DNA from: Planctomycetota bacterium | GTDB lineage: Bacteria > Planctomycetota > MHYJ01 > WSZJ01 | Direction: 5' to 3' | Length of the DNA: 64,000 nucleotides | Assembly (NCBI GenBank): GCA_038060895.1 | Contig: JBBTCT010000022.1 | Location: forward strand, 32,001-96,000 | In this document: positions 10,965 through 62,813 of the stretch, one piece after another | Position numbering within the stretch: position 1 is the first letter of the stretch | Layout of the letters: each line of letters starts with the position of its first letter | Program-made: the position numbers and the translations under genes | The notes under the pieces: generated by a model | Database searches by the model: none | Told to the model about the DNA's origin: nothing | The model's input: only the letters and a program-made list of their open reading frames with translations

Positions 10965-10983
10965 TACTTAATGCCATTAACTA
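10965..10983. promoter_or_regulatory. operator palindrome, site 1 (nxr/cox divergent region)
   Basis: TACTTAA-TGCCA-TTAACTA. Confidence 0.8.
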
Positions 10984-11270
10984 TTACTCCGGCCGCTGCC
11001 GCGAGGAGCGAGGCCAACAAAAAGGCCCGGCGCCCCGACCGGCGGGATCGGAGACGCAGGGCCGGGCGGGAGGTCCCGCCCCACTGCTATCCCGGCTGCG
11101 AAACCGGGAGGGGATTTGATTCAGTGAGGGCTCGCTCCGCAAATGCCGGGCCCTCTTCCGCCGGGAAGCGACCCGCGGGGCGCCGTGTGATTCCGCGGAA
11201 TCTTCCCCGCACGCGGCGGACTATTTCCCATCCGGCGCCGATTCCCCCTGCGCAGGTCCACAAGCCGCCC

Positions 11271-11286
11271 CGGTCCCGGATTTGCG
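11271..11286 (+). promoter_or_regulatory. sigma54-like promoter of the oxidase operon
   Basis: CGGTCCCGGATTTGCG. Confidence 0.5.
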
Positions 11287-11366
11287 ATGCCGCTCTCTGA
11301 CAATTCCACAGCTGCGCAGGACAGTCCCCGCGCGAGCACCATCAACTCCTGGAGGGCTCTTCCATC

Positions 11367-12167
11367 ATGATCCGCATGTCCCAGCTTGCCCCTGCCGTCC
11401 TTTCCCTGGCGATCGCAATTCTGGCCTCCGGCTGCGGCGATTCGAGCAGCGAACCCGGCGCGGGCGAAGGCAAGCCGGCCGACGGCGCCGGGCAACCGAC
11501 CGGTCCGGAAGTGAAAGTAGACACCGCCACCGCAGGCACGATCTCAGGCGCCGTGAAATTCGAAGGAGCGGCCCCGACCGAGCGCGTCAACTCCGCCGAG
11601 GCAGACGCCTTCTGCCACTCGAAACACCCGGAAGGGATCAAGAGCGAATCGGCCGTCATCGGCGCCGGCGGAGAACTCGCCAACGTCTTCGTCTGGATCA
11701 AAAAGGGAATCACCGGCAAATTCCCGCTTCCGTCAGAACCCGCCGTGCTCACGCAGAGCGGCTGCCGCTACGAGCCGCATGTGCTGGGGCTCCGGAACGG
11801 ACAGGATCTCGTCGTCAAGAACGACGACGACACCATGCATAACGTCCACTCCCTGCCGAAGGCCAACGAGGAATTCAACTTCGCGCAGACGAAGAAGGGG
11901 GACGAAGCGCGGAAGAAGTTCTCTTCGCAGGAAGTGATGGTCAAGTTCAAGTGCGACGCGCACGGGTGGATGAGCTGCTACGTCGGCGTCGTCAATCACC
12001 CCTACTTCGCGGTCACCGCCGCTGACGGAAAATTCGAGCTCAAGAACGTGCCGCCCGGCGAGTACGAAGTCGAGGCGTGGCACGAGAAGTTCGGGAAGCA
12101 GTCCCTGAGCGCAAAGGTTGAGTCGAAGGGGACCGCCACTCTCACCTTCACCCTGAAGGAGAAATAG
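11367..12167 (+). CDS. lipoprotein with cupredoxin-like and carboxypeptidase-regulatory-like domains
   Basis: lipobox ASGC; GCRYEPHV, HNVH and KCDAHGWM (Cys/His/Met copper-type motif). Confidence 0.8.
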   Translation: MIRMSQLAPAVLSLAIAILASGCGDSSSEPGAGEGKPADGAGQPTGPEVKVDTATAGTISGAVKFEGAAPTERVNSAEADAFCHSKHPEGIKSESAVIGAGGELANVFVWIKKGITGKFPLPSEPAVLTQSGCRYEPHVLGLRNGQDLVVKNDDDTMHNVHSLPKANEEFNFAQTKKGDEARKKFSSQEVMVKFKCDAHGWMSCYVGVVNHPYFAVTAADGKFELKNVPPGEYEVEAWHEKFGKQSLSAKVESKGTATLTFTLKEK

Positions 12168-12171
12168 CCGG

Positions 12172-12993
12172 ATGCCCAACAAGCGCGGAGCGGTCTCGGC
12201 CTGGCTGCTGGCCTCGCTTCTGATCCTGTTCACGATCCTCACGGTGGGCGCGTTCTTCGTCCTGAAGTGGCGCCCGGACGTGGCGAGCGAGCACGGGAAA
12301 GGCGTGGACAAGATGATCCTGTACATCATCTTTGCCGCGGGGTTCATCTTCGTCGTCGGGCACCTCGTCCTCTCCGCTTTCCTTGTGAAATTCGGCGGCA
12401 AGAACGGGGCGACCTACAAACCGATGACGCACAGGGCCGAGATGCTCTTCACGATCGGCCCGGTCGTCTTCATGGTCGCGGTGTCGGAGCTGGGAGTCCT
12501 CGCGATCGGCGGACCGGTGTGGAACCAGGTGTACACCCACCAGTCCGGCGACCTCGTCGTCGAGATCACGGCCAAGCAGTACGAGTGGATCTCGCGGTAT
12601 CCGGGGAAGGACGGGAAGTTCGGCCGAAAGCGCCCGGACCTTTTCGACGACCAGGAGAATCCGCTCGGTCTCGACCCGAAGGACCCGGATGCGAAGGACG
12701 ACATCGTGATCCGCGGCGCCGTGTACCTGCCCGTGGGGAAGGGCGCCTGGTTCAACATCCAGTCGTGGGACGTCCTGCACAGCTTCAACGTCCCGGTGCT
12801 CCGCTCGAAGCAGGACGCCGTTCCCGGATTGACGACCCACACGAGGATTCTTCCGACCGTGATCGGGCGTTACGAGATCTCCTGCGCGGAAATCTGCGGG
12901 CCCGGCCACTACAAGATGCGCGGGTTCGTGAACGTGAAGTCGGAAGCGGATTTTTATAAGTGGCTGAAATCGCAGGTGGGCTGGTTCGAGTAA
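12172..12993 (+). CDS. coxB: cytochrome c oxidase subunit II
   Basis: two TM helices; DVLHSF and CAEICGPGHYKM CuA motif. Confidence 0.95.
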   Translation: MPNKRGAVSAWLLASLLILFTILTVGAFFVLKWRPDVASEHGKGVDKMILYIIFAAGFIFVVGHLVLSAFLVKFGGKNGATYKPMTHRAEMLFTIGPVVFMVAVSELGVLAIGGPVWNQVYTHQSGDLVVEITAKQYEWISRYPGKDGKFGRKRPDLFDDQENPLGLDPKDPDAKDDIVIRGAVYLPVGKGAWFNIQSWDVLHSFNVPVLRSKQDAVPGLTTHTRILPTVIGRYEISCAEICGPGHYKMRGFVNVKSEADFYKWLKSQVGWFE

Positions 12994-13115
12994 CACTTCG
13001 ACTCGCCATGCGGGCTCTCTCGGGGCAGGGCCATTCCGTCGGGAAGGGCAATTCCTGAGTTCGTCGCGCCGTTCGAAGTTTTCAGCGGGATGCAGGACAG
13101 ATAGGGAGAAGCAAC

Positions 13116-14861
13116 TTGGCGATCGCGCAAGCGGCAAGGCCGGGGACTCACGAGTCTCACGTGCACGACGGTGGGCACTCGATCGGATTCGTCCGCAAAT
13201 ACATCTTCAGCACGGATCACAAGGTGATCGCCGTCCAGTACATCCTCATGGCGATGCTCATGAGCGTCGTCGGGCTGGGGCTGTCGCTCCTGTTCCGGAT
13301 CCAGCTGGCCTGGCCCGGGAAGGCAGGAATGACGCCGGAGCAGTACGTGAGCTACGTGACGATGCACGGCACGATCATGATCTTCTTCGTCGTGTCGCTG
13401 GCGCTGTCCAGCGGCCTGGGGAACTTCAGCATCCCGCTGCAGGTCGGCGCGCGCGACATGGCTTACCCGCTGCTGAACATGCTGTCCTTCTGGGTCATCG
13501 TCCCCGCGGCCGCCATCATGATCCTCTCGTTTTTCGTCGAGGGCGGAGCCGCCGCCGGCGGGTGGACCGCTTACCCGCCTCTCAGCGCGCTCTCAGGATT
13601 CGGGAAAGTCCCGAGGGGCTCGCCCGGCTCGGGGATGGGCCAGACGCTGTGGCTCCTCGCTATGGCGCTCTTCATCGTCTCCTTCACGATGGGAGGCCTG
13701 AATTACGTCGCCACGATCCTGAACCTGCGCGCCCGCGGGATGAGCCTCATGCGCATGCCGCTCACGGTGTGGACCTGGTTCATCGCGGCCCTCCTCGGGC
13801 TCCTCAGCTTCCCTGCACTTACGGCGGCCGCGATCATGCTGCTTCTCGATCGCCACCTGGGCACGAGCTTCTTCCTGCCGTCAGGGCTCGTCGTCTCCGG
13901 CCAGCAGGCCGTCAACGCAGGGGGCACGCCTCTCCTCTTCCAGCACCTCTTCTGGTTCCTCGGACACCCGGAGGTCTACGTCCTCGTCCTCCCGGCCATC
14001 GGCATCGCCTTTGACGTCCTCGCCGCCTTCTCGCGGCGCCCGCCGCATGGCTATAAATACAGCGTCGGAGCCCTGCTGATCATCGCCTTCCTCGGCATGA
14101 TCGTCTGGGGCCATCACATGTTCACCAGCGGCATGAACCCGTTCCTCGGGAAGTACTTCTCGATCTCCACGCTCCTGATCACCGCGCCTTTCGCGATACT
14201 CGGCGTCAATCTTCTCGCCTCCCTCTGGCGCGCCCGCATCCGCTTCACGACCGCCATGCTCTTCGCCCTCGGGCTCATCTCCGCCGTAGGCACGGGCGGC
14301 ATCGGCGGCCTCTTCCTCGCCACCGCGACCGCCGACCTCCACTTCCACGACACCTACTTCGTTGTCGGCCACTTCCACCTCATGATCGGCGTCGTCACCA
14401 TGACCGGCACGTTCGCCGGGATCTACTACTGGTTCCCCAAGATGTTCGGGCGCTACATGAACGAAACCCTCGGCAAGCTCCACTTCTGGGGCACGTTCAT
14501 CGGCGCCTTCGCCGTCTTCGTCATCCAGCACTTCCAGGGCTTCGGCGGCATGACCCGCCGCTACTTCGAATACTCCGCCGACTACGTCAAGCCCGCCGTG
14601 GCCCTCAATCCGGCCGTCACCGTCTTCGCGTTCCTCGCCATCGCCGCGCAGCTCCCGTTCTTCTTCAACTTCTTCTGGAGCATGTTCAAGGGGAAGAAGG
14701 CCGAAGCGAATCCGTGGGAAGCGACGACGCTGGAGTGGACGACGGCGACGCCGGTGCCGCACGGGAACTGGGACCGCTTGCCGGTCGTGTCGGGCGATCC
14801 GTACGGGTACGCGGCGGGGCCGGACGGCAACGCGCACCGCATGCAGAATGCGGAGGGGTAA
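13116..14861 (+). CDS. coxA: cytochrome c oxidase subunit I, A1 type
   Basis: TDHKVI, TMHGTIM, FWFLGHPEVY, WGHHM, HDTYFVVGHFH. Confidence 0.97.
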   Translation: MAIAQAARPGTHESHVHDGGHSIGFVRKYIFSTDHKVIAVQYILMAMLMSVVGLGLSLLFRIQLAWPGKAGMTPEQYVSYVTMHGTIMIFFVVSLALSSGLGNFSIPLQVGARDMAYPLLNMLSFWVIVPAAAIMILSFFVEGGAAAGGWTAYPPLSALSGFGKVPRGSPGSGMGQTLWLLAMALFIVSFTMGGLNYVATILNLRARGMSLMRMPLTVWTWFIAALLGLLSFPALTAAAIMLLLDRHLGTSFFLPSGLVVSGQQAVNAGGTPLLFQHLFWFLGHPEVYVLVLPAIGIAFDVLAAFSRRPPHGYKYSVGALLIIAFLGMIVWGHHMFTSGMNPFLGKYFSISTLLITAPFAILGVNLLASLWRARIRFTTAMLFALGLISAVGTGGIGGLFLATATADLHFHDTYFVVGHFHLMIGVVTMTGTFAGIYYWFPKMFGRYMNETLGKLHFWGTFIGAFAVFVIQHFQGFGGMTRRYFEYSADYVKPAVALNPAVTVFAFLAIAAQLPFFFNFFWSMFKGKKAEANPWEATTLEWTTATPVPHGNWDRLPVVSGDPYGYAAGPDGNAHRMQNAEG

Positions 14862-14863
14862 GC

Positions 14864-15424
14864 ATGCTGATGAAAATCGAAGCGTGGGGAAGGGAAGAGA
14901 GGGACTCGGCGGAGCTGCCGGAGTCGGTGCGGGCTGAGACGTGGCAGACGCTCACGTACCTGATGATTGCCGGCGGGATCATGCTGTTCACGACGTTCAC
15001 GGCCTCGTACCTGGTGCGGCGGCAGAGTCCCGACTGGGCTCCGGTGCGGTTGCCCGCGCTCGTCTGGGCGAATCTCGCGGTGGTCGGCCTGGCGAGCGTC
15101 ACGATGGAACTGGCCCGTCGCGGCCGCGCCTCGGCTCGCCCGTGGCTGGGTGCGACGATCGGGCTAGGCCTGCTCTTTGTCGCCGGACAGGCCCTGGCCT
15201 GGCGCCAGCTCGCGGCCCAGGGAGTGTTCTTGACGACTTCGCCGCAGGCCTCTTTCTTCTACATGCTCACCGCCGTGCACGCGGCGCACGTCGCGGCAGG
15301 GCTCGCCGTGCTCCTGGCCGCGTTGCGGCGCGCCGGCACGAAGCCGCTCGGCCTGTGCGCCGCCTGGTGGCACTTCGTCGGCGCCGCCTGGGCCTGGGTC
15401 GTGATGCTGCTGAACTTCTTCTAG
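14864..15424 (+). CDS. cytochrome c oxidase subunit III-like protein (first copy)
   Basis: FFYMLTAVHAAHV, WWHFVG; hydrophobic. Confidence 0.85.
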   Translation: MLMKIEAWGREERDSAELPESVRAETWQTLTYLMIAGGIMLFTTFTASYLVRRQSPDWAPVRLPALVWANLAVVGLASVTMELARRGRASARPWLGATIGLGLLFVAGQALAWRQLAAQGVFLTTSPQASFFYMLTAVHAAHVAAGLAVLLAALRRAGTKPLGLCAAWWHFVGAAWAWVVMLLNFF

Positions 15425-15427
15425 GGG

Positions 15428-16048
15428 ATGGCGATGAACCCGACCGCTGTGACGGGGCATGAAGCGGCGTCCGAGGAATCGGAACCCGGTTTCTACGGGA
15501 CGTCGTGGCAGAAGCTGATGATGTGGTGGTTCATCATCGGGGATGCCATCCTCTTCGGCAGTTTCCTCGCCGCCTACGGCTTCGCCCGCATCTCCGCCGG
15601 GAGCTGGCCCGACCGGACGCAGATGTTCAGCATGAACTTCATCACGGTGATGACGTTCACCCTCATCACCTCCAGCGCGACCATGGCCACCGCCGTCGCC
15701 GCTTCCCGCCGCGGCGACCGCAAGGCAGCCTTCAACTTCACGATGGCCACGGCCATCGGAGGCATCGCCTTTCTCGGGATGCAGGCGTACGAGTGGTACC
15801 ACCTGATCCACAACGGCGCGCGCATGGGCACCAACCCCTGGGGCGCCCCCGCGTTCGGCGCGTACTTCTTCACGATCACCGGCTTCCACGGCTCCCATGT
15901 CGCCTCCGGCGTGCTGATCCTGCTCATCACCGCGTGGAATGCGAAGCGCGGGAAGAGCGGACCCGAGGGCGTCGAGCTCACAGGGTTGTACTGGCACTTC
16001 GTCGACCTCGTCTGGGTATTCGTCTTCGGCTGCTTCTACCTCATCTAG
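15428..16048 (+). CDS. coxC: cytochrome c oxidase subunit III
   Basis: FFTITGFHGSHV, GLYWHFVDLVW. Confidence 0.93.
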   Translation: MAMNPTAVTGHEAASEESEPGFYGTSWQKLMMWWFIIGDAILFGSFLAAYGFARISAGSWPDRTQMFSMNFITVMTFTLITSSATMATAVAASRRGDRKAAFNFTMATAIGGIAFLGMQAYEWYHLIHNGARMGTNPWGAPAFGAYFFTITGFHGSHVASGVLILLITAWNAKRGKSGPEGVELTGLYWHFVDLVWVFVFGCFYLI

Positions 16049-16056
16049 GACGCGAC

Positions 16057-16323
16057 ATGAGCGACACCCACCCGGAAGCGAGCTACAGGTCGTACTGGAT
16101 TGCCTGGGGAATCCTGCTGGTCCTGACCCTGGTGATGATCTCGATTTCGAGCAAGGCGCTCCTGCTCGGCGGGATCCTGGTGAAGTCCGTCATCATCGGG
16201 GCGTGGTTCATGCACCTGAAGCACGAGCGCGCGATCCTGATCTGGAGCGTGATCGCGGGAGTCCTGTTCGCAGGGTTCCTGTTCTTCCTGATCTCGTTCG
16301 ACGCGGGGGTGTCGGTCCTGTGA
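16057..16323 (+). CDS. cytochrome c oxidase subunit IV
   Basis: three TM helices with K..I..WFMHLKHE motif. Confidence 0.85.
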   Translation: MSDTHPEASYRSYWIAWGILLVLTLVMISISSKALLLGGILVKSVIIGAWFMHLKHERAILIWSVIAGVLFAGFLFFLISFDAGVSVL

Positions 16324-16574
16324 AGCGGCTCCTTCCCATTGCGCTGTGGCTGTTGCTGGCTCCGGCGGCGTGGGCGGGGAGCTGATGAAAAGGGGACGAC
16401 CCGGGTCCGGCGGACCTGGAACCGGCGCAGCGCTCGCGACTCGGGACGCTGATGCTGATGACGGTTCCCTACCCGCTCATGGCCGGGTTCATGGCGCTGG
16501 CGTGGTGGCAGCAGCGGAAGCGGCGCGCTGCCTCCGCAGAGACAATTTGCGTGGACGGTTCCGGGGACAAGTAG
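16320..16574 (+). CDS. candidate selenoprotein (two tandem in-frame UGA), small exported membrane-anchored protein
   Basis: GTGA overlap with subunit IV; signal peptide ending AWA; TGA-TGA at 16383-16388; frame stays open through a TM helix and RKRR to TAG at 16572-16574. Confidence 0.6.
16401..16419 (+). promoter_or_regulatory. bacterial SECIS-like hairpin
   Basis: CCGGGTCC-GGC-GGACCTGG; the G-starting loop begins 20 nt after the second UGA. Confidence 0.5.
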
Positions 16575-16590
16575 TAAAGTGCATTAACTA
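16572..16590. promoter_or_regulatory. operator palindrome, site 2
   Basis: TAGTAAA-GTGCA-TTAACTA, 15 bp upstream of the start at 16606. Confidence 0.8.
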
Positions 16591-16605: not shown

Positions 16606-17004
16606 TTGCGCGTCGCCATTCCGGTCACGACAGGCCAGATTCCCAATCACCTGGGCCACTGCACCTCGTTTCTCTTCGCCGACGTGGAAGAGGGCCGCGT
16701 GCTGCGCGAAGAGCTCCTTCCCAATCCCGGCCACGGCCCCGGGGGCCCTCCGCCCGCCTTCCTGGCCCGCAGCGGCGTGACGCACCTGCTGGCTTGGGGA
16801 TGCCCGCCTCCCGCCCTTGAGATGTTCGACGAGGTCGGGATCAAAGTCGCGCTCGGCGCGACGGGGGACGCGAAGGCTGCCCTGCGCGCCTGGCTCGAAG
16901 GGACCCTGAAGCCCGTTTCCGATGGCCTGGACGCCGGAGGCGGGTGCGGCCCGAGCTCTTTGGATGAGGGAAAGGTGCGCGGAGGATGCGCCGGCGGCCA
17001 TTGA
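16606..17004 (+). CDS. NifB/NifX-family (FeMo-cofactor-binding-like) protein
   Basis: RVAIP..HLGHC..F, NPGH, and a Cys/Gly-rich tail. Confidence 0.8.
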   Translation: MRVAIPVTTGQIPNHLGHCTSFLFADVEEGRVLREELLPNPGHGPGGPPPAFLARSGVTHLLAWGCPPPALEMFDEVGIKVALGATGDAKAALRAWLEGTLKPVSDGLDAGGGCGPSSLDEGKVRGGCAGGH

Positions 17005-18724
17005 GTTTCTCAGCCGCGCCGGCTTCCTGCGCGTTGTCCCCACACCCGAGGAGATCGAAGCCCTGTCACCGAAGCGCCGGAAAAAAGTCCTCCTGACCAG
17101 CGTGTGCCGCCCCCTTGGGGAAAGCGCCGGGGACTCCCCGAGCGTAGGCTACGAACTCCTCCACTGCCAGGTCACCCGCGCCCAGGGCATCTTCAGCCCC
17201 CGGTCTCACCACATTCACTTCTCCCTCGAGTACATCGCGCAGAATCTCGAAGCGCCGACGGTGGTGCTTCAGTACCCGTCGAAGCGCGAACTGATCCGTG
17301 AGCTCAGGAAGGGCTATGACGTCGTCGGGGTGTCCTTCGTCATGCCGACTTTTCACCGGATGAAGGAGGTCGTCGCCCTCATTCGGGCGCACTCGCCCGA
17401 CGCGCAGATCGTTCTCGGCGGCTACGGAACTGTCCTCGGGGAGCAGGTCCTGCGGCCGTGGTGCGACCACATTTGCCGCGAGGAGGGCGTCGGGTTCATG
17501 CGCCGTCTCCTTGGCGAGACGGAGATTCCGCTTCCGTACGACCACCCGATGATCGTCAACCCGCTCCGGGTTTTCGGAAAGCAGGTCGGGCGGACGGGAA
17601 TCGTGTTCGGCGGGCTGGGTTGCCCGCACGGTTGCGATTTCTGCTGCACTTCTCATTTCTTCGCCCGCAAACACATTCGCCTTCTTCCCACCGGTGCGGA
17701 CATCTACGGCGTGATCCGGCGGTACCTCGACGTGGATCCGAACATGTCGATCCTCGTGATCGACGAGGATTTCCTCCTGAACCGCAAGAGGGCCATGGAA
17801 CTGCGCGAGTGCGTGCAGGCGGGCGGCGTTCCGCTGAGCATCTTCGTGTTCGCGAGCATCAAGGCGCTCACCCAGTACTCGGTGACGGAAATCATGGAAA
17901 TGGGAATCGACGGGATGTGGATCGGCTATGAAGGGACGCGCTCGGGGTACTCCAAGCAGCAGGGACGGCCCGTGGGGGATATCTTCCGCGAGTTTCGCGC
18001 GCATGGGATCAGCATCCTGGCGTCGATGATCGTCGGATTCCCCTACCAGACGCCGGAGATCATTGAGGAAGAGCTGACGGGGCTTCTCGATCTGCACCCT
18101 GACCTGGGGCAATTCCTGATCTACGGCCCGTCCCCCGGGACGCCGTTCTACGAATCCGTCAAAAAGCAGGGGCTGTTCCACCAGGAGTACGTCGATGACC
18201 CCGAGCTGTACTACAAAAAAGCCAGCGGCTTCTTCTCCATGGTCCGGCATCCGACGATGTCCGCCGGCCAGATCGAGGCCGAACAGAGACGTTGCTTCGA
18301 CGAGGACTTCCGCCGTCTCGGCCCTTCGATCTTTCGCGCGCTTGAAACCTGGCTTCTGGGCCATCTGAAGCTGAAAGACTCTCCCAGCGCCTACCTGCGC
18401 GCGAAGGCGGCCAGTTTCGCCGCGGACTTGCGCAGGTCCTACCCCGTCTTTCTCGCCGGCCGCCTGCTCGGCCCGAACCGGAAGGTCCGCCGCTGGATCG
18501 GCGAGCTGGAAGCGCGAATCCACGCCGCGCTGGGAAAGCCGACACTTCTGGAGCGCGTGCAATCCGTGGCGGCGATCGGTGCGGCGGCGTGGACGGGAAT
18601 CAAACTCAAGCTGGGGCTGTTCCAGCACGTGCCGCTGAAGCGCGGCGAGTGGCGGATGGAAGAGACCCGTCGGTCCCTGTCGGCGCCCTCACCCGAAGTC
18701 CGCGTCGCCGCAGGGACGCCCTAG
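16964..18724 (+). CDS. cobalamin-binding radical SAM protein (start uncertain)
   Basis: GCPHGCDFC (CxxxCxxC); N-terminal B12-binding-like domain (DVVGVSF..IVLGG). Confidence 0.85.
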   Translation: MRERCAEDAPAAIEFLSRAGFLRVVPTPEEIEALSPKRRKKVLLTSVCRPLGESAGDSPSVGYELLHCQVTRAQGIFSPRSHHIHFSLEYIAQNLEAPTVVLQYPSKRELIRELRKGYDVVGVSFVMPTFHRMKEVVALIRAHSPDAQIVLGGYGTVLGEQVLRPWCDHICREEGVGFMRRLLGETEIPLPYDHPMIVNPLRVFGKQVGRTGIVFGGLGCPHGCDFCCTSHFFARKHIRLLPTGADIYGVIRRYLDVDPNMSILVIDEDFLLNRKRAMELRECVQAGGVPLSIFVFASIKALTQYSVTEIMEMGIDGMWIGYEGTRSGYSKQQGRPVGDIFREFRAHGISILASMIVGFPYQTPEIIEEELTGLLDLHPDLGQFLIYGPSPGTPFYESVKKQGLFHQEYVDDPELYYKKASGFFSMVRHPTMSAGQIEAEQRRCFDEDFRRLGPSIFRALETWLLGHLKLKDSPSAYLRAKAASFAADLRRSYPVFLAGRLLGPNRKVRRWIGELEARIHAALGKPTLLERVQSVAAIGAAAWTGIKLKLGLFQHVPLKRGEWRMEETRRSLSAPSPEVRVAAGTP

Positions 18725-18737
18725 TGGTGAGTCAGCA

Positions 18738-18782
18738 TTGATTTCGGGGGTCGCGTCCGAAGGGCGCGACCCCCGGAATCAA
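18738..18782. terminator. GC-rich stem-loop after the radical SAM gene
   Basis: TTGATTTCGGGGGTCGCG...CGCGACCCCCGGAATCAA. Confidence 0.6.
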
Positions 18783-18917
18783 GCGCGTCGAACTATTAGC
18801 CGCACCCGCAATTTTCCGCATCCCCGTGTGGAATTCCCCGCTTCAGGAACCCTTCGCTCCTGAATTCAACCGGGCACGCATTTGCAGGGTCTACGCGTGC
18901 CTCTTGAGGAGAATGAC

Positions 18918-23146: not shown

Positions 23147-23165
23147 TAGTAAATGCCATTAAATA
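23147..23165. promoter_or_regulatory. operator palindrome, site 3 (aldolase/DUF1800 divergent region)
   Basis: TAGTAAA-TGCCA-TTAAATA. Confidence 0.8.
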
Positions 23166-24712: not shown

Positions 24713-24713
24713 C

Positions 24714-24772
24714 GCCCTTCGACTCGCCCTTCGGGCTCGACCACTCTGAGCGAGCGGAGCGAGTCGAAGGGC
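24714..24772. repeat. REP-like intergenic inverted repeat
   Basis: GCCCTTCGACTCGC...GCGAGTCGAAGGGC. Confidence 0.65.
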
Positions 24773-24785
24773 TCAGGAGGTTTTG

Positions 24786-47059: not shown

Positions 47060-47098
47060 TCTTGTGAGGCGGCGGCCCGCAACATTCCGGAGCCCGGC

Positions 47099-52390: not shown

Positions 52391-52441
52391 AGCGCAGACA
52401 AGAGACTCGCCATTCCCGCCATCCCTGTTTCGAGGTTCACC

Positions 52442-54612: not shown

Positions 54613-56612
54613 TCGTTTCTCCTTTGGAGGGAATCGTTGCGGATCACCAGCGCGTCCACGCCTTTCAGGCTTTTCGCGGAAGCGATCACAGGGTTGGCGT
54701 CAACTTCGAGAACATCGGGGTGCCTCTTCATCCAGCGCGCGAGCGCTGCGATCGCCCTGGCGACTGCGGGGATCGCTTCGGGAAGCCGCGCGGCGAGGCG
54801 TGCGCCCGCTTTTGTTTCGGCGATCATCGAACGCGCTTCGGCCGCCGTGACCGCGCCGACGCGGAGGGCGACGTCGCGAGTCTGTTCGGTCCAGATGCCA
54901 CCGCTTCCGAACATCACGACCGGGCCGAACGTGGGGTCGCGGCGGGCGCCGATCAGCAATTCGTGGCCGCCCGGAGGGAGCATTTCCTGCACGACGGCTC
55001 CGGCGCCGAAGGCGCGCTCGAGTTTTTTCCACGCGGCGGCGAGGGTCTTTTCCGTGACGCCGAGGAACACGCCGCCGCGTCCCGACTTGTGGGGGCCGGC
55101 GTGAAGAGCCTTGAGGGCGACGGTGCCGCCGAAGCGGCGGAGGAGGCGTCGGGCTTCGGCGAGGGAGGAGGCGGTGGCCTGGCGGCACATGGGGATGCCG
55201 GCGTTTTCGAGGAGCTTTGCAGACTCGTACGGGTCGGCGGCGCGGCCCGCGGCGGGCGCGGCGGGTTCGGCAGGCTGGCTCGCGCCCCGGTTCAGGAGGG
55301 CGAACGCGCGGACGGCGCGCTCGGGCGTCGGGAACACGGGGATGCCGGCGTCGGTGAAGGCTTTCTGGATCAACGGAACGTCGAGCGTGAACGCGAGCAC
55401 GGGGACTTTTGCCTTCGCCTGCGCGAACGCGGCGCCGAACTGCAACCGGTCGAGGCCGACGTTGATGGCAAGCAGGGCGCCGATCTGCGGGTCCGAGGCG
55501 ACGGCCGCGACGGCGGCGGGGAAGCGTTCCGGGTCGCACTGGGGTGTCATGTCCACGGGATTGCGGAGCGCGCCGAACTCGGGGACGAGCGCCTTGAGAG
55601 CGGTCTGCGTCCCGGGCCCCAGCTCCGGCATCCAGACGCCCGCTTCTTCCGCCGCGTCGGCCGCCGCGACGCACGGGCCTCCCGAGATCGTCACGACCGC
55701 GAGCCCCTTCCCCACGGAAAGCCCTTTCGGATACGCGCTGTACGCCGCGAGGGCGTCGAAGAATTCGTCGGTGTCGCGGGCGACGACGGCGCCCGCCTGC
55801 CGCAAGGCGGCTCGGACGACGTCGCCATCGCCGGCCATGGAGCCGGTGTGGGACTGTGCGGCGCGCCGGCCCGCGACGGTGCGGCCCACCTTGAAGGCGA
55901 CGACGGCCTTCGTGCGGCAAAGGCGGCGGCAGGTTTCGAGAAAACGCGGGCCGTCCTTGATCTCTTCGACGAAAAGGCCGACGACCTCGGTGCGAGGGTC
56001 CGACTCGAGCCAGTCCATCACGTCGGCGTGGGTGATGTCGGCCTGGTTGCCGATGGAGGCGAAGACCGAGACGCCGATCGAGCGCCGGCGGAGTTCGCCG
56101 AAGAGGAGCCCGCCGTAGGCGCCGGACTGCGAGACGAACGCGAGGTTCCCCTCGCGACGCGGCAACTCCCAGAAGTAGGTCGCGTTGAGCCGGCCGGGGA
56201 GGTTGTAGACGCCCATGCAGTTCGGTCCGAGGAGGCGCAGGCCGGACTTGCGGACTTCTTCCTGAAGAGCCTTTCCGTCGCCGCCCATCTCCCCGAATCC
56301 GCTTGCGAGAATGACGGCCGCCTTCGAACCGCGCGCGGCGGCGTCGCGGATTGCGCCGGGCACGCAGCGGTTGGGTATGGAGAGGAGCACGAGGTCGGGC
56401 GCGACCGGGAGCGAGCGGACGTCGGGGAAGACGGTTCTTCCGAGAATCTCGCCGCCGGACGGGTTGACGGGGAAGACCTCTCCTTCGAAACCGTAGTCGA
56501 GCACGTTCTTCAACAGGACGTGCCCCAGCTTGGCCGGGTCTCGGGAAGCGCCGACCACCGCGATGGAGCGCGGGCGAAACAGCGGGTCCAGCGCGCGCGA
56601 GGGCGCGGTCAT
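54609..56612 (-). CDS. ADP-forming acyl-CoA synthetase (CoA-binding plus ATP-grasp fusion)
   Basis: PRSIAVVGAS, GPNCMG, SQSG, SHTGS, DPTFGP. Confidence 0.92.
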   Translation of the reverse strand: MTAPSRALDPLFRPRSIAVVGASRDPAKLGHVLLKNVLDYGFEGEVFPVNPSGGEILGRTVFPDVRSLPVAPDLVLLSIPNRCVPGAIRDAAARGSKAAVILASGFGEMGGDGKALQEEVRKSGLRLLGPNCMGVYNLPGRLNATYFWELPRREGNLAFVSQSGAYGGLLFGELRRRSIGVSVFASIGNQADITHADVMDWLESDPRTEVVGLFVEEIKDGPRFLETCRRLCRTKAVVAFKVGRTVAGRRAAQSHTGSMAGDGDVVRAALRQAGAVVARDTDEFFDALAAYSAYPKGLSVGKGLAVVTISGGPCVAAADAAEEAGVWMPELGPGTQTALKALVPEFGALRNPVDMTPQCDPERFPAAVAAVASDPQIGALLAINVGLDRLQFGAAFAQAKAKVPVLAFTLDVPLIQKAFTDAGIPVFPTPERAVRAFALLNRGASQPAEPAAPAAGRAADPYESAKLLENAGIPMCRQATASSLAEARRLLRRFGGTVALKALHAGPHKSGRGGVFLGVTEKTLAAAWKKLERAFGAGAVVQEMLPPGGHELLIGARRDPTFGPVVMFGSGGIWTEQTRDVALRVGAVTAAEARSMIAETKAGARLAARLPEAIPAVARAIAALARWMKRHPDVLEVDANPVIASAKSLKGVDALVIRNDSLQRRNE

Positions 56613-56679
56613 TGCCGGATGTGCCGTTGCGCTGCCCGTCACTTGCGCCTCCGTTCTGAAAGGAACGAAACTCTCGCTT

Positions 56680-57066
56680 TTACAGGACGGCAAACCCCTC
56701 GATTTCCACCTTCGCTCCCGCTTCCACAAACCCCGCGACCTGCAGGCACGTCATCGCGGGATAGTGCTTCCCCATGATCCGTTTGTACTCGGGGCCGAGC
56801 GACTTGAGCGACGCGTTGTACTCGTCCTTCGAGCCGATGAAGATCGCCAGCCGGACGATGTTCTCCGCCCGCCCGCCCGCGGCCTTCACGACGTCCACCA
56901 CATTCTGAAGCGCCTGCGCGAACTGTTTCACGAAGTCGTCGCCGACGAGTTTCGAATCCTTGTCCCATCCCACCTGACCGGCGACCGCGAGGAACGTTCC
57001 CGTCGCCTTGACGCCGTTGTTGTATCCGAGCGGTTTCGCCCAGCCGGGCGGATTAACGATTTCCAC
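56680..57066 (-). CDS. RidA/YjgF family enamine/imine deaminase
   Basis: PPGWAKPLGY, AGQVGWD, HYPAM, VEIE. Confidence 0.9.
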   Translation of the reverse strand: MEIVNPPGWAKPLGYNNGVKATGTFLAVAGQVGWDKDSKLVGDDFVKQFAQALQNVVDVVKAAGGRAENIVRLAIFIGSKDEYNASLKSLGPEYKRIMGKHYPAMTCLQVAGFVEAGAKVEIEGFAVL

Positions 57067-59251
57067 GAAGGGCTCTCCACACTCTTTCAGGGGTCATCGG
57101 GAACTCGCGCATCCGGACGCCCGTCGCGTCCGCGATCGCATTTGCAATCGCCGGCCCGATCGGGACGATCGGCGCCTCGCCGATGCCCTTCGCGCCGAAC
57201 GGCCCTTCGGGATCGTTGGTCTCGACGAGGACGGTCTCGATCTCGGGGATGTCGCGCAGTCCGGGCATGCGGTAGTCGAGGAAGAACCCGTTCTGCATCT
57301 TGCCGTCTTTGAGGACGCACTCTTCGAACAGGGCGTAGCCGAGGCCCTGGATCACGCCGCCTTCGACCTGCCCTTCGGCGTGCATCGGGTTAATCGCCTT
57401 CCCGATGTCGTGAGCCGCGACGATGCGCTTTACCACGACCTGCCCGGTCTCGGTGTCCACCTCGACCTCGACGCCGTGGCAGCCCCAGGTGTAGGCGGCG
57501 GAGACGTTGCCGTGGTTCGCCTTGTCGACCATCGTCGTGGGCGGGTCGTAGAAGACGCTCGCGACGATGAGGCGGCCTTTCTGGCGGAAGTGCTCGGCGC
57601 GGACGACCTTGTCGATCGACGCGTCGGCGGGGAGTTTCAGCGCCGCGCGGGCGTCCTCGATCTGCTTCTTTGCTTCCTTGGCCGCAAGCCGCACGGCGTT
57701 GCCGGCGATGAAAGTCGTGCGGGAGGCGTGGACGCCGACGTCCCAGAGGCGGATGTCCGTGTCGGCTTGCGTGGCGACCCGGACCATGGACACGGGGACG
57801 CCGATTTCGTCCGCGGCGATCTGGGCCATCGCGGTCTCCATCCCCTGGCCGATGTCCGTCGCGCCGACGATGACGACGACCTTGCCGAAATCGTCCACCT
57901 TGACGGTCGCGCCGCAACCGTCGCTCCGGTAGATGCGCGCGCCGCCGCCGACGTGGAACACCGCCGCAATGCCGATCCCGCGCCGCAGGTGCGGCAGCGC
58001 TGAAGCGGCCGGCCGTTTGAGGCGCGTCCTCACCGCCTCCAGGACTTCCTTGAACCCGCACGACGTGATCCGCCCGCCCGCCGGCGTCGTCTCCTCGGAG
58101 CGGTTCGCGTTTTTCAGCCGGAAATCGATCGGGTCGATGTGAAGCGCCTTCGCCAGTTCGTCCATCTGGGATTCCATGGCGAAGAGGAGTTCGGGATTGC
58201 CGAAGCCGCGGAACGCGCCGGTGGGCTGCGTGTTCGTGCAGACGGTCCGCGCCTTGTAACGCGCTGCGGGGCACTGGTAGAAGTTCCCGAAGGTGTTGAC
58301 CATGACGACCGGCGTCATGGCGCCCCACGAGACGTACGCGCCGCAGTCCACGAGGATGTCGGCGTCGCGGCCGAGCAGCGTGCCGTCGGCGGCCGCGGCC
58401 GTGCGCAGGCGGACGACGGTCCGCGGCCGGACCGGGTCGGTCTGGAAGTCCTCGTCACGCGAGAAGACGATCCGGACGGGCGTTCCGGTTTTCTTCGCGA
58501 GAAGCGCGACGATCGCCTCGTGCGGGTAGAGGTCGAGGCGCGCGCCGAACGCGCCGCCGATGCACGGCTGGACGAGCCGGATGTCCGCCGGAGAAATGTC
58601 GAGGGCTTCCGCGAGGTCGCGCTGGACGAGGAACGGGATCTGCGTCGGGTCGTGGAGCGTCAGACGGCCGTTCGCGTCCCACTCGGCGATCGCTCCGGCC
58701 GGCCCGAGGCACCCGTGCTGCTGCGCCGGCAGGATGAACGTCCCTTCGACGATCTTCGCCGCGTTCGAGAACGCTTCCTCGATCTTCCCGTGCTCGTAGT
58801 GGTGCGTCTGGACGAGGTTCGACCCGCGCGCTTCGTGCAGGACTGGCGCCCCCGGCTCCAGCGCCGCCTCCATCTCGTACACCGCCGGAAGCGGCTCGAT
58901 CAGCACCTTGATCCGCTCGCACGCCTCGATCGCCGCTTCGATGTCCGTCGCCGCGACCGCCGCGAGCTCGTCGCCGATCCGTCTCACGCGGTCGCCTTTC
59001 AGTGCCACCTGGTCCTTCGAGTACCCCCACACCTTCGCCGGGATGTCCTTCGCCGTCAGGATCGCCCGCACTCCCGGCACCTTCCACGCCTCCGTCACGT
59101 CAATCGACACGATCCGCCCGTGCGGCACCTTGCTCCGCAGGATCTTCGCCTCGAGCATCCCCGCCAGCCGCAGGTCCTGGACATACCGCGACTTGCCGGT
59201 CGCTTTGTCCGCCGCGTCAAGCTTGGGGACGCGTTGTCCGACGCTCTTCAC
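57053..59251 (-). CDS. xanthine dehydrogenase-family molybdenum subunit (candidate indoleacetate hydroxylase)
   Basis: GGAFG, AFRGFG, DIGQG, GQVEGG, AKGIGE. Confidence 0.92.
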   Translation of the reverse strand: MKSVGQRVPKLDAADKATGKSRYVQDLRLAGMLEAKILRSKVPHGRIVSIDVTEAWKVPGVRAILTAKDIPAKVWGYSKDQVALKGDRVRRIGDELAAVAATDIEAAIEACERIKVLIEPLPAVYEMEAALEPGAPVLHEARGSNLVQTHHYEHGKIEEAFSNAAKIVEGTFILPAQQHGCLGPAGAIAEWDANGRLTLHDPTQIPFLVQRDLAEALDISPADIRLVQPCIGGAFGARLDLYPHEAIVALLAKKTGTPVRIVFSRDEDFQTDPVRPRTVVRLRTAAAADGTLLGRDADILVDCGAYVSWGAMTPVVMVNTFGNFYQCPAARYKARTVCTNTQPTGAFRGFGNPELLFAMESQMDELAKALHIDPIDFRLKNANRSEETTPAGGRITSCGFKEVLEAVRTRLKRPAASALPHLRRGIGIAAVFHVGGGARIYRSDGCGATVKVDDFGKVVVIVGATDIGQGMETAMAQIAADEIGVPVSMVRVATQADTDIRLWDVGVHASRTTFIAGNAVRLAAKEAKKQIEDARAALKLPADASIDKVVRAEHFRQKGRLIVASVFYDPPTTMVDKANHGNVSAAYTWGCHGVEVEVDTETGQVVVKRIVAAHDIGKAINPMHAEGQVEGGVIQGLGYALFEECVLKDGKMQNGFFLDYRMPGLRDIPEIETVLVETNDPEGPFGAKGIGEAPIVPIGPAIANAIADATGVRMREFPMTPERVWRALRGNR

Positions 59252-59654
59252 GGATCGCCTCCTGGATCTTCTTGTACCCCGTGCACCGGCACAGGTTCCC
59301 CTCCGGCACGTCCTCCGTCTTCGCCGCGAGGATCATCCCCGGCGTGCAGAACCCGCACTGGATCGCCCCCTTCGCGATGAACGCCTCCTGCATCGGGTCG
59401 AGCTTTCCATTCTTCGCAAGGCCTTCGATCGTCGTGATGGAAGCGCCTTCCGCGTCCGGGGCGAGAACGAGGCACGAGACGAGCGGCTTGCCGTTCACGA
59501 GCACGGTGCACGCGCCGCAGTCTCCGGTCGAGCAGCCTTCGCGCACTCCGGCGAGCCCGAGGTCGTTGCGGAGGACCTCGAGCAGCGTCCGGTGCGGCTC
59601 GATCTCGAGCGCGACAATGTTCCCGTTCACCGTCATCGTGAGACTCCGCTTCAT
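59217..59654 (-). CDS. XDH-family 2Fe-2S subunit
   Basis: GCSTGDCGAC, QCGFCTPG, NLCRCTGY. Confidence 0.93.
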   Translation of the reverse strand: MKRSLTMTVNGNIVALEIEPHRTLLEVLRNDLGLAGVREGCSTGDCGACTVLVNGKPLVSCLVLAPDAEGASITTIEGLAKNGKLDPMQEAFIAKGAIQCGFCTPGMILAAKTEDVPEGNLCRCTGYKKIQEAIREERRTTRPQA

Positions 59655-60427
59655 GAGGCCACCCTTTCCAGCGCCCGCCTCACGAGCACGCGCACCATCT
59701 CCCGCCGGTATTCCGCTGAGGCCCGGATGTCGTCGATCGGCGAACAACGCCTCACGGCCTCTTCCACCGAGGGCGGCACCCGGATCGGAGTCGGGGAGAC
59801 CGCGCCAAGCGCGAGCCGCACGTCCTTGCCGACCGCGGCGCACGCGACGCTCACGAACGCGAGGTCCATCGCGCGGCGCGTGCAGAACTTGATGAAGCAG
59901 CCCCTGGCCGTCGCCGCGGGGATGCGGATTTCTTTCAGGATCTCGTCGGGTCCCAGCGCAGTCTTCCCGGGTCCCAGGAAGAACTCCCTGAGCGGGATCA
60001 GCCGCTCCCCCCGTGTCCCCCACACGTTCAGCGTCGCGTCGAGGCAGAGCAGGGGAGGCGCGAGGTCCGCCGCGGGGGATGCATTGCACAGATTGCCGCC
60101 CGCCGTCGACATCGCCCGGACCTGCGGCGATCCCATCTCGTGCACGGTCTCCACGAGCATCGGCCAGCGATTCGCCACGATTTCCGATGCCGCCAGCTCG
60201 TCGAGCGTCGTGAGCGGCCCTACGAACACGTGATCGCCGCGCTCCTCGACCCCGCGCAGCCCACCGATCCGCTTCAGGTTGATCACCCGGTCCACCGTCC
60301 ACTCGCGCCGCTTCAGCCGCACGAGCAGGTCCGTGCCGCCCGCCAGCAACCGGTTTCGCCCGGGGCGCGCCATCAGCGCCGAGGCCTCTTCCAGCGTGCG
60401 CGGCTCTTCGTAGTCGAACGCTCTCAT
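59651..60427 (-). CDS. XDH-family FAD subunit
   Basis: AGGTDL, GGNLCNASPAAD, DDIRASAEYR. Confidence 0.92.
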   Translation of the reverse strand: MRAFDYEEPRTLEEASALMARPGRNRLLAGGTDLLVRLKRREWTVDRVINLKRIGGLRGVEERGDHVFVGPLTTLDELAASEIVANRWPMLVETVHEMGSPQVRAMSTAGGNLCNASPAADLAPPLLCLDATLNVWGTRGERLIPLREFFLGPGKTALGPDEILKEIRIPAATARGCFIKFCTRRAMDLAFVSVACAAVGKDVRLALGAVSPTPIRVPPSVEEAVRRCSPIDDIRASAEYRREMVRVLVRRALERVAS

Positions 60428-60948
60428 GCCTTCTCCGCGCCTTTGAGGAACGCCTGCCGGTTCGCTTCGACCGCTTTCGGCGGCGAGAGCTTCTCGAGGG
60501 CGGCGAGCAGGGAAGCGCGCGCCGGGAAGGCGCCAGGCGCGGCGGTGGACGAGAAGCCGAGGAGTGCGATGTTCGCCGCGCGGGTGGCGTTCAGCTCCCG
60601 GGCGATCGCCGACGCGTCGAGCGACCGCGCGCCTTCGGCCGCCGTCGCGTTCACGAAGCACGCGCCGCCTTCGCGCAGGAACGACCGCGCGTCCGCCAGC
60701 CGGGTCACGTCGATCGCGACCGTCACATCGGCTTTCCCGCGGCGCACCAGCGGCCCCTCGAACCCGCCGATCTTCACATGCGACTCGACGGCGCCGCCGC
60801 GCTGGGACATCCCGTGCGTCTCGCTGACGATGGCGTCGCGTCCCTCCATCTCCGCCGCTTCCGCGAGGAGCCGAGTGACGAAGAGAATCCCCTGGCCGCC
60901 GAGGCCGAAGATGACGATCTGGGAACGCGTCGCGGCGGCGGCGATCAC
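60424..60948 (-). CDS. iorB: indolepyruvate:ferredoxin oxidoreductase beta subunit
   Basis: GLGGQG, SETHGMSQRGG. Confidence 0.88.
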   Translation of the reverse strand: MIAAAATRSQIVIFGLGGQGILFVTRLLAEAAEMEGRDAIVSETHGMSQRGGAVESHVKIGGFEGPLVRRGKADVTVAIDVTRLADARSFLREGGACFVNATAAEGARSLDASAIARELNATRAANIALLGFSSTAAPGAFPARASLLAALEKLSPPKAVEANRQAFLKGAEKA

Positions 60949-62756
60949 GTGAGCGGGACCTCCTTCTTCAGCGGCAGGATCGCGTCGGACGGGCACATGT
61001 ACACACACTGGCCGCAGTCGATGCACTTCGTATGGTCGATCACCACCTTCCCCGTCGCCCGGTCCTTCACGAGTCCCGGGCACTCGCACATCTTGAGGCA
61101 GTAATCGCACCCGTCGCACAGTCCCGAGTCGATCTCCACGGGCGTCCGGACCTCGGGCGGCTGGTAGAGCGCGCAGGGACGCCGCGCGACGACGACTGCG
61201 ATCCCGCCCTCGGGTTCCTTCGTCCAGGCCCGCGCTTCCTTGAGAATCGCGATTCCGCCCTCGACGTCGTACGGGTCCGTCGTCCGGACCCATTTGACGC
61301 CCACGGCCCGGCAGATGGCCTCGATGCTCGCGCCGGCGTCCGCGGGCGTCGGCTGCGCGCCGGTCATGGCGACGATGCCGTTGTCGGAGACGACGCAGAC
61401 GAAGCGTGCGCGGGCGGCGACGGCGTTGAGAAGGGCGGGGATGCCGCTGTGGAAGAACGTGGAGTCGCCGATGATCGCGACGATCGGGATGTCTTTTCCA
61501 TCGAGCCGGTGCGCGCGCCAGAAACCTGTCGCCATGGTGATCGACGCCCCCATGTCGAGGCAGGTGTCGATCGCGCGCTGGTTGGTGCCGAGCGTGTAGC
61601 AACCGATGTCGCCTGCGAAGATGGCGCCCGGCATCGCCAGCTTGAGCTCGTAGAAAACCGAACGATGCCCGCACCCCGGGCAGAGGCGGGGGGGAAGCGG
61701 CGCCGACGGCGGCGCGGGGGGCGGCGGCCGGCAGCCGAGGAGGCGGGCGACGACCTCGGGGGTCAGCTCCCCGTGCCCGGGCACGTGGCCGGTCAGCCGT
61801 CCCTGGACATCGCGCCGGTCCGGGATCTGCATCTCGATCGCAGCATCCGGCTCCTCGATGACGAGCACGCGGTCGTGGCGCGCGACGAAGCGCGTGACGA
61901 GGCCGAGGGGAAGCGGGTACGGGGTCCCGATGCGGAGGACGGGGATGTCGAGCCCTTCTTCGGCCAGGACGTCGCTCACGGCGGCGGCCACGCAACCGCC
62001 GGCGATGATCCCGAACGGCGTCGGCCGCGGGTCTTCGACATTGAACGGCGACGTCTCGAACTCCGCGCGGATCGCCTCGAGCTTCGCGTTGAGCTCCGCG
62101 TGAAGCGGCAGCCGGAACCGCGGCGTCGCGGCCCAGCGTTCGGGGTCCTTCGAGAATTTCGCCGGCCGCGGCCGCCGGTCGAGCGGCCCGGCATCGATCG
62201 CCTGCCGCGAGTGGCAGACGCGCGTCGTCGGTCGCAGCAGGACCGGGAGCCGGTGCCGCTCCGACAATTCCATTGCCGCCATCGCCATCGCCCGCGCTTC
62301 CCGCGGTGTCGACGGGTCGAACACGGGGGTCTTCGCGAAGATCGCGAAGAGCCGCGTGTCCTGCTCCGTCTGCGACGAGTGCGGCCCGGGGTCGTCGGCT
62401 GCGACCACCACGAAGCCGCCTAGGCATCCGGTGTAGGCCGCCGAGAGCAGCGAGTCGCTCGCGACGTTCAGACCGACCTGCTTCATTGCCACCGCGGTGC
62501 GCTTCCCGCACATCGACGCCGCCAGAGCGACGTCGAACGCGATCTTTTCGTTCACGGACCATTCGGTGGCGACTGCGGCGCCGAGGGCGTCGCGCTGGCG
62601 CACGATCTCCTCGAGGATCTCGGTGCTGGGCGTCCCGGGGTACGCGGTCGCGACCTCGCAGCCGGCCTCGATCAGGCCGCGCGCAATGGCGCCGTTGCCG
62701 AGAAGGACTTCCCGGGCAGGCGCCGAAGTCTGTTTCAGGGACGTGTCGGGGTCCAC
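60945..62756 (-). CDS. iorA: indolepyruvate:ferredoxin oxidoreductase alpha subunit
   Basis: YPGTPSTE, SQTEQD, CPGCGH, GDSTFFHSG, two C-terminal 4Fe-4S motifs. Confidence 0.92.
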   Translation of the reverse strand: MDPDTSLKQTSAPAREVLLGNGAIARGLIEAGCEVATAYPGTPSTEILEEIVRQRDALGAAVATEWSVNEKIAFDVALAASMCGKRTAVAMKQVGLNVASDSLLSAAYTGCLGGFVVVAADDPGPHSSQTEQDTRLFAIFAKTPVFDPSTPREARAMAMAAMELSERHRLPVLLRPTTRVCHSRQAIDAGPLDRRPRPAKFSKDPERWAATPRFRLPLHAELNAKLEAIRAEFETSPFNVEDPRPTPFGIIAGGCVAAAVSDVLAEEGLDIPVLRIGTPYPLPLGLVTRFVARHDRVLVIEEPDAAIEMQIPDRRDVQGRLTGHVPGHGELTPEVVARLLGCRPPPPAPPSAPLPPRLCPGCGHRSVFYELKLAMPGAIFAGDIGCYTLGTNQRAIDTCLDMGASITMATGFWRAHRLDGKDIPIVAIIGDSTFFHSGIPALLNAVAARARFVCVVSDNGIVAMTGAQPTPADAGASIEAICRAVGVKWVRTTDPYDVEGGIAILKEARAWTKEPEGGIAVVVARRPCALYQPPEVRTPVEIDSGLCDGCDYCLKMCECPGLVKDRATGKVVIDHTKCIDCGQCVYMCPSDAILPLKKEVPLT

Positions 62757-62794
62757 GGGCGTGATTTTATCCTCGGGGGAACGGAGGCGATAGG

Positions 62795-62813
62795 TGATTA
62801 ATGTGCTTAATTA
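62795..62813. promoter_or_regulatory. operator palindrome, site 7, upstream of iorA
   Basis: TGATTAA-TGTGC-TTAATTA. Confidence 0.72.

Follow-up and report, generated by a model that had tools for sequence, protein, structure and literature searches.

A conserved palindromic operator and its likely repressor, a four-cysteine MarR-family protein, in an anaerobiosis regulon of Planctomycetota

Introduction

Regulators of the MarR family usually act as repressors, and the FNR and AadR regulons cover nitrate and nitric oxide (NO) respiration together with anaerobic aromatic catabolism. In this work we analysed a 64,000-nucleotide stretch of a Planctomycetota genome (GenBank assembly GCA_038060895.1, contig JBBTCT010000022.1, here C22, positions 32001-96000), in which seven copies of a 19-base palindrome precede genes for both kinds of metabolism and in which a MarR-family protein with a tail of four conserved cysteines (MarR-Cys) is the likely cognate repressor. 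This stretch is called the window, and positions refer to it unless a contig is named; it belongs to a genome (G000) of 5.42 Mb with 66% GC and an estimated completeness of 86.5%. Other genomes and loci are given by number (G001, L041 and so on). A regulator, an operator and a conserved regulon can now be proposed for this uncultured planctomycete lineage.

PqrR of Pseudomonas aeruginosa is a MarR-family protein with four C-terminal cysteines. The available text of PMC8466533 describes it as a repressor with an iron-containing redox group, a feature only predicted for MarR-Cys, which appears distinct from this precedent in its C-x2-C-x7-C-x8/9-C tail and its anaerobic-metabolism regulon. ArnR of Corynebacterium glutamicum, according to the accessible part of PMC12343034, represses nar and hmp as an O2-stable [4Fe-4S] protein and comes off its DNA once nitrosylated. 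The shared features are a winged-helix repressor, C-terminal cysteines and control of a nitrate reductase and an NO-removal gene; in our case the sites before an nxr/nar operon and a Nod-like gene predict targets of this type. ArnR has three such cysteines (179, 193 and 223) and is reported only from Actinobacteria in that part of the source, whereas the window protein has C155, C158, C166 and C175 in a Pfam MarR protein, and its regulon also covers aromatic catabolism; the two are set apart here by their descriptions.

BadR of Rhodopseudomonas palustris and Aromatoleum sp. CIB is likewise a MarR repressor tied to the benzoyl-CoA pathway, with an operator that overlaps the promoter, but the sections of PMC9795900 that are available give it a different operator (CAAN4TTG), a CoA-ester effector and a small local regulon with no respiratory targets. 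The FNR/CRP family offers similar regulon content with another fold and another box, and the geometry in the window suggests repression. The iaa cluster of Aromatoleum aromaticum contains a mutase, a CoA transferase, an acyl-CoA dehydrogenase and a CoA ligase feeding benzoyl-CoA reductase, as does the iaa-like cluster found here; its regulators are iaaQ and iaaR in the accessible text of PMC8360864, whereas the window cluster shares its operator with respiratory genes. As far as its available text goes, PMC9613470 deals with MarRs at aerobic auxin loci and leaves the anaerobic iaa locus out of its treatment, and in the part available of a 2024 review (PMC11672702) Zn sensors are the sole metalloregulatory MarRs said to have been characterised. 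We found no published account of the MarR-Cys family or of the operator in the literature covered, in which subscription journals are thinly represented; the regulon, real and conserved, is apparently undescribed. The regulator is likely to be a MarR variant of a new type with a predicted sensing chemistry, and would act like ArnR or FNR yet belong to neither.

Results and discussion

A conserved operator in the window

The original prediction, made from the letters of the window, had listed the palindrome TAGTTAA-N5-TTAACTA at 10965, 16572, 23147, 26057, 41177, 47041 and 62795 with 1, 1, 2, 0, 3, 5 and 3 mismatches, and all seven sites were found at these coordinates with these counts, each of them in a gap between genes. 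The two arms held as described; the free five-base spacer did not, since its inner bases are conserved as TG-N-CA, and the motif takes the shape of an odd-centred 9-1-9 palindrome of 19 bases. Six window sites have at most three mismatches where 0.06 would be expected, and none of 100 shuffles reached six. Thirteen sites of this quality occur in the whole of G000, seven of them within C22:42965-96669. The weak site at 47041 is not significant by itself, as 11 other window positions also have five mismatches.

A scoring matrix was then built from 27 sites of relatives, which is only partly independent because those sites were found using a G000-derived pattern. The window sites rank 1, 3, 4, 5, 6, 10 and 24 genome-wide in this matrix. 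Among the 27 window gaps of at least 30 bases, the seven that hold a site score 14.0-32.5 bits and the other 20 no more than 2.1. The genome-wide enrichment that had been suggested as a check was borne out in the intergenic DNA of G000, with 14 sites of at least 15 bits against 1.0 in shuffled sequence and 9 of at least 18 bits against 0.12 (8 shuffles). Given the origin of the training sites, we regard positional conservation as the stronger evidence. Six of the seven genus relatives were matched at no more than three mismatches with zero control hits, and the motif recurs before orthologous operons across the genus and in other families, as the second proposed check had anticipated. The palindrome is a real, conserved operator. 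Nine of 51 scored sites were called inside genes, and a 22-bit site of G000 (C1:268256) lies in the 3' part of a gene, where it is possibly a chance match or the site of another promoter.

The four-cysteine MarR protein as the likely cognate regulator

The window encodes one 185-residue MarR-family regulator on the minus strand (40546-41103; Pfam PF01047/PF12802 above cut-off), which on sequence grounds likely binds the operator as its cognate repressor. It had already been named as the protein to use in binding assays, and this choice agrees with the motif standing before its own gene in 18 of 22 homologues. Using a matrix trained on 43 non-marR sites, the 150 bases upstream of these 18 MarR-Cys genes scored in the top 5% of 2729 background gene heads, and those of 12 of the 22 in the top 0.5%; the set includes a homologue in G300 at 28% identity. 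Only one of ten plain MarRs reached the top 5%, in a control where 10 of 14 loci gave a gene, the one for L062 being a neighbouring gene and two having incomplete starts. G167, with no upstream DNA, was left out of the own-gene test, and the start used for G140 is approximate. At 185 residues the protein can be tested in E. coli without culture of the host.

Motif and regulator also occur together. Under the strict pattern, 56 sites were found in 16 MarR-Cys genomes and 9 in 18 GC-rich non-carriers; two or more strict sites were present in 12 of the 16 and 2 of the 18, a comparison for which a Fisher p-value is overstated, related genomes not being independent. AT-rich families, in which forward and control counts were both high, were excluded from this count. 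Within genus g13, G019 carries MarR-Cys and has 11 strict sites, against 0-1 in the six others. G009, of the same order and with no MarR-Cys match, keeps bcr/iaa-like genes, and this locus scores no more than 3.8 bits over 12 kb. The earlier statement that this is not an FNR regulon also stands: the motif is odd-centred, and the Crp helix-turn-helix (HTH_Crp_2) was found in none of the eight genus genomes (81-94% complete) and was not found in 14 of the 16 MarR-Cys genomes. Two weak Crp-HTH matches in G000 were read as DtxR/MntR-type and LexA-type proteins.

The C-terminal tail, C155-x2-C158-x7-C166-x8-C175 (CxxC-x7-C-x8-C), had not been part of the earlier reading. All four cysteines are invariant in 27 homologues; in an alignment of 100 distant homologues three are invariant and the fourth is at least 90% conserved. 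Searched as a profile against 1.84 billion representatives, the protein proved to belong to a broad family, with CxxC-x7-C in 145 of the 151 top 50%-identity representatives examined. MarR-Cys was found in 16 of 56 genomes of the class and in at least 17 of 401 sampled genomes of the phylum, with eight candidates scored per genome. Six relatives within the genus and four distant matches (25-27% identity) came from a one-protein search for related loci. Close homologues are labelled Planctomycetia, Planctomycetes or Ca. Brocadiae, and the best Atlas clusters, taken as a lead only, are MarRs rich in Pseudomonadota, Acidobacteriota and Actinomycetota. Foldseek matches were MarRs covering the MarR core only, and none of the 60 listed PDB sequence matches extended past profile position 146. 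Against Pfam the tail gave sub-threshold matches only (PF12225, E 0.012, 1 of 15). Weak plant-ferredoxin matches in the PDB (E 0.01 or worse) covered two of the cysteines and were taken as chance. The tail thereby appears to define a subfamily covered by none of the Pfam models or PDB chains compared.

A separate, distant MarR-Cys clade heads 2-oxoacid:ferredoxin oxidoreductase operons at L167-L170 (G407, G140, G365 and G300); the large flavo/Fe-S genes behind these operons are presumably heterodisulfide-reductase-like. At L237 (G007:C437:3702-4136) a broken marR copy with four stops and no upstream site lies before a bcr operon that is closer to those of other genus members than is the rest of G007; here either gene and operator decayed together or the contig was mis-binned.

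Operators and target genes

The strongest site (10965-10983; 32.5 bits) lies 154 bases upstream of an anammox-type NXR/NAR operon on the minus strand (2261-10810), assigned by Pfam, which includes a cytochrome c and a NarJ-like chaperone and has internal gaps of at most 84 bases. Its NxrA matches the anammox NXR chain of PDB 7B04 at 1773 bits. The site is kept before the nxr cytochrome orthologues of G002, G004 and G007. On the other side it is 384 bases from a plus-strand A-family heme-copper oxidase (cox) unit (11367-16323; COX1-4 domains, GHPEVY motif), an uncertain target with no nearer site. No promoter came up when 10750-11400 was scanned for sigma-70 elements, and a second cox cluster of G000, on C27, is without a site (7.7 bits).

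At 16572-16590 (25.8 bits) the operator stands 15 bases before a nifX-like gene that heads a plus-strand unit (16606-22423) of nifX-like, B12 radical SAM and then oah-, SDR-, dch- and had-like genes, with a 193-base gap before oah; nifX-like orthologues in G002, G003, G005, G006 and G007 also have a site. The copy at 23147-23165 (28.3 bits) is 59 bases before a DUF1800 gene followed by DUF1501 (23225-26015, plus strand), a target that recurs across families. It lies 58-61 bases upstream in G002 and G003, keeping with DUF1800 in these two genomes, which are without the aldolase there. Such DUF1800/DUF1501 pairs are among the best-conserved targets across families; a genome has several paralogues, and these frequently adjoin marR or nod (L092, L093, L094, L097, L101, L105).

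The perfect copy (26057-26075; 27.7 bits) is 48 bases before a Nod-like qNor variant (26124-28535, plus strand). According to the accessible text of Ettwig et al. (PMC3413370), putative NO dismutases show a His-to-Asn and a Glu-to-Gln replacement and loss of the quinol site. In an alignment with 3AYF the window protein shows His560 to Asn and Glu581 to Gln (numbers counted from the alignment) and has lost the quinol-site residues, and so fits as a putative NO dismutase (Nod), an activity that is putative in the source paper too. Close Nod-like genes (at least 73% identity) were found in 7 of 56 genomes of the class; all seven genomes carry MarR-Cys and all seven have a site before nod. The site in G019 (19.6 bits, 43 bases upstream) was found only after it had been predicted, and is thus out-of-sample; at the distant qNor loci, those in G030 and G009, the scores were 5.3 and -2.2. 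This operator-Nod link gives a route to finding out what induces the putative NO dismutase and if O2-sensitive enzymes are expressed along with it.

The autoregulatory site (41177-41195; 20.2 bits) is 73 bases before marR, which is followed after 100 bases by bcrC of a bcrCBAD-like benzoyl-CoA reductase set on the minus strand (36314-40445), likely co-transcribed with it. A site precedes marR in all seven genus relatives and keeps with marR although the divergent gene differs between them. In the window the divergent genes form an iaa-like arm (41414-53146, plus strand) encoding OB-fold, thiolase, B12 mutase, CoA transferase, hydantoinase AB, V4R, acyl-CoA dehydrogenase and DUF2249 proteins; in G006 sites precede the OB-fold and mutase genes. 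The weak site (47041-47059; 14.0 bits, rank 24) stands before hydantoinase A and overlaps a -35/17/-10-like arrangement (geometry by eye), and its orthologues precede hydA in G002 (19.9 bits) and G003. Finally, the site at 62795-62813 (22.8 bits), 38 bases before iorA and also present before iorA in G002 and G006, heads a minus-strand unit of iorAB, a xanthine-oxidase-family molybdoenzyme, RidA and a CoA ligase (54609-62756). The homologues of bcr, dch, had and oah score best on those NCBIfam models, yet remain under the equivalog cut-offs. We take the hydantoinase and the molybdoenzyme to belong to the iaa-type cluster as well. The set of mutase, CoA transferase, acyl-CoA dehydrogenase and ligase genes resembles the iaa cluster as set out in the available part of PMC8360864.

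The promoter-proximal placement claimed for all seven sites is right as to the gene gaps; the aldolase, cox and OB-fold/thiolase genes were rejected as direct targets of 23147, 10965 and 41177, for which orthologue context favours DUF1800, nxr and marR. RNA evidence came from a single study (four runs, small word shares) and consisted only of short contigs at depth 2-3, uninformative on starts, strand and level.

Extent of the regulon

Some target labels in the relatives rest on blastp or on N-terminal sequence. Glutaryl-CoA dehydrogenase is preceded by a site in G000 (C9:343031), G003, G004, G005, G008 and G048, and sites also recur before benzoate-CoA ligase-like genes (G005, G006), oah (G005, G006), a U32-family protein (G001-G003), a BcrA-like fusion (G003, G004, G006) and 2-oxoacid oxidoreductases. 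No site had been seen before oah or bcrC, which is correct for the window; relatives do have them, between marR and bcrC in G001, G003, G004, G005 and G006 and before oah as just listed. Since, in addition, bcrC lies so close behind marR in the window, bcr and oah are probably members of the regulon. In other families a variant of the motif with C/G at positions 8/12 (by eye) precedes nod, cytochrome cd1 (nirS-type), radical SAM, HemN-like and hemerythrin genes, as well as aminotransferase-V and DUF1800 genes and a large number coding for secreted or unassigned proteins. A cysteine desulfurase-like gene and an MFS transporter adjacent to NxrA are further targets in these families.

The regulon is an anaerobiosis regulon comprising the benzoyl-CoA pathway, 2-oxoacid oxidoreductases, radical SAM enzymes, NXR/NAR and Nod, and is wider than indole catabolism. 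The original prediction of one regulator for nitrogen-oxide respiration and aromatic catabolism is upheld in this form; its restriction to indole is not, and the link to O2 respiration is weak, one site lying 384 bases off. The regulon is also kept in G019, for which no bcrB match was obtained. Several genomes have, close to marR (L041, L042, L050, L173), genes which we take, from their N-termini, to be tryptophanase/tyrosine phenol-lyase-like, and which suggest aromatic amino acids as a feed.

Proposed mechanism and alternatives

We propose that MarR-Cys and the operator form a pair and that the protein may work as an ArnR-like Fe-S repressor sensing through its cluster, with NO as the single most likely signal; we would put this reading as a whole at roughly 55%. 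A MarR dimer would very probably bind the 9-1-9 site, and would, with almost the same confidence, repress by covering the promoter or the transcription start. The distance from site to start codon is mostly 15-90 bases. Inspection by eye of 42 displayed sites shows a -10-like hexamer that runs into the left arm in 9 of them, as well as -35/17/-10 arrangements that share bases with the hydA site in G000 and G003 and stand immediately before the nxr site in G007. This geometry suits a repressor, the usual role of a MarR. The conserved four-cysteine tail, together with nitrogen-oxide and O2-sensitive Fe-S targets, suggests a metal-cluster sensor, and it seems rather likely that the tail would hold Fe or Fe-S and not Zn. 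More tentatively, the cluster-bound form would repress in air and be released by NO or a changed cluster state under anoxic nitrate respiration, in the manner of ArnR. Release would switch on NXR/NAR, the Nod-like enzyme and the O2-sensitive Fe-S and radical enzymes together, including benzoyl-CoA reductase and the indoleacetate route.

Several results weigh against this model. The predicted structure is a MarR fold in which the tail has low confidence (pLDDT 55-70), and neither Pfam nor the PDB gives a significant match to the tail. NirS and NirK were not found in G000, which is incomplete at the level given above, so that no NO source is recognised in it. Four of the 22 MarR-Cys genes have no upstream site (G022, G051, G120, G059), G015, G022 and G048 carry MarR-Cys yet have 0 strict sites, and nothing of at least 9 bits was found at the bcr loci of G015, G051 and G007. 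Of the seven homologues from outside the class, four stand at the head of 2-oxoacid oxidoreductase operons in whose vicinity no nitrogen-oxide genes were recognised, and many targets in G019 and G028 are secreted or unassigned proteins. In most distant genomes the reversed control of the loose pattern, a poor null for it, gave counts no lower than the forward pattern did, and G407 had no loose-pattern match genome-wide. The homologues and bcr loci without sites and the other operons headed outside the class indicate that the regulon varies, and the pairing of MarR and operator is firm mainly for the genus and for G008, G012, G019 and G028.

The alternative that survives best, though we consider it unlikely, keeps the same MarR and operator and makes the signal an aromatic CoA ester, as for BadR, with the four cysteines binding a structural zinc. 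An aroyl-CoA effector would fit the presence of bcrB in 14 of the 16 MarR-Cys genomes, the position of marR beside bcr or ring-opening genes in most carriers, and targets such as benzoate-CoA ligase, oah and glutaryl-CoA dehydrogenase; BadR itself is a MarR released by CoA esters in the text available of PMC9795900, though its operator, already given, differs. Five bcrB-carrying genomes have no MarR-Cys match, and many targets are unconnected to aromatics. A purely aromatic signal is disfavoured because G019 has the regulator, its 11 strict sites and a site before nod, but no bcrB match.

Somewhat less probable again is that the same MarR senses O2 or oxidants directly in the manner of PqrR, through a labile iron site or cysteine oxidation, the oxidised or apo form repressing or else oxidation releasing it to resupply damaged Fe-S enzymes. 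The targets are mostly O2-sensitive Fe-S and radical enzymes and Fe-S assembly-type genes (DUF59, nifX-like, cysteine desulfurase-like), FNR-type proteins were found in none of the eight genus genomes, and a reference in the accessible part of PMC8466533 has PqrR in its title as an iron-containing redox-sensing repressor. The Nod link in seven of seven genomes and the nirS site indirectly favour a nitrogen-oxide signal.

It is quite improbable that another factor (Rrf2, LysR or an unrecognised one) binds the palindrome and that marR is merely one target. The 19-base 7-5-7 layout does recall Rrf2/NsrR boxes, G000 has two Rrf2 genes, one site in G005 precedes an Rrf2-like gene, and in three MarR-Cys genomes the strict pattern finds no match. 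The two Rrf2 genes of G000 both lack an upstream site (best 4.9 and -7.6 bits), with which non-autoregulated control is still compatible; the motif tracks MarR-Cys within g13, is absent from the bcr/iaa locus of G009 and precedes marR homologues down to 28% identity. It is barely credible that we are dealing with AT-rich promoter elements or with matches that arose by chance against a GC-rich background: some sites do overlap -10-like hexamers and the right arm at 47041 could be a -10 element, but both arms are conserved where the sequence between orthologues varies, shuffled intergenic DNA yields 0.12 sites of at least 18 bits against the 9 observed, and the 20 other window gaps stay at or below 2.1 bits.

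A far-reaching extension of the Fe-S repressor model, which we regard as doubtful, is that a widespread Fe-S MarR family might replace FNR as the master anaerobic switch in Planctomycetota without CRP/FNR, turning on, all together, nitrate reduction, the putative NO dismutase that would generate O2, an oxidase that would scavenge it and the O2-labile benzoyl-CoA reductase; one NO-sensing protein would then wire oxygenic denitrification to anaerobic aromatic degradation.

Beyond the main targets

The stretch 32400-36300, between the nod and bcr units, is of lower GC and gene-poor; it looks like an insertion, because G002 and G003 have these units close together without it. An eighth site (C22:96669, window-equivalent 64669; 29.8 bits) lies 669 bases beyond the window, between a DUF59 gene and a 976-aa beta-propeller/di-heme gene whose orthologues are preceded by a site in G001, G002 and G007. 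Downstream of DUF59, 332 bases from this site, a minus-strand gene (62824-64000) with no Pfam or NCBIfam match encodes a membrane protein that we take to be NnrS-like. This second-strongest site heads the 976-aa gene, ApbE, multiheme cytochromes and Rnf/Nqr-like genes (L123:2757-13683), and among the genes behind it there are weak matches to the beta and gamma chains of hydrazine synthase.

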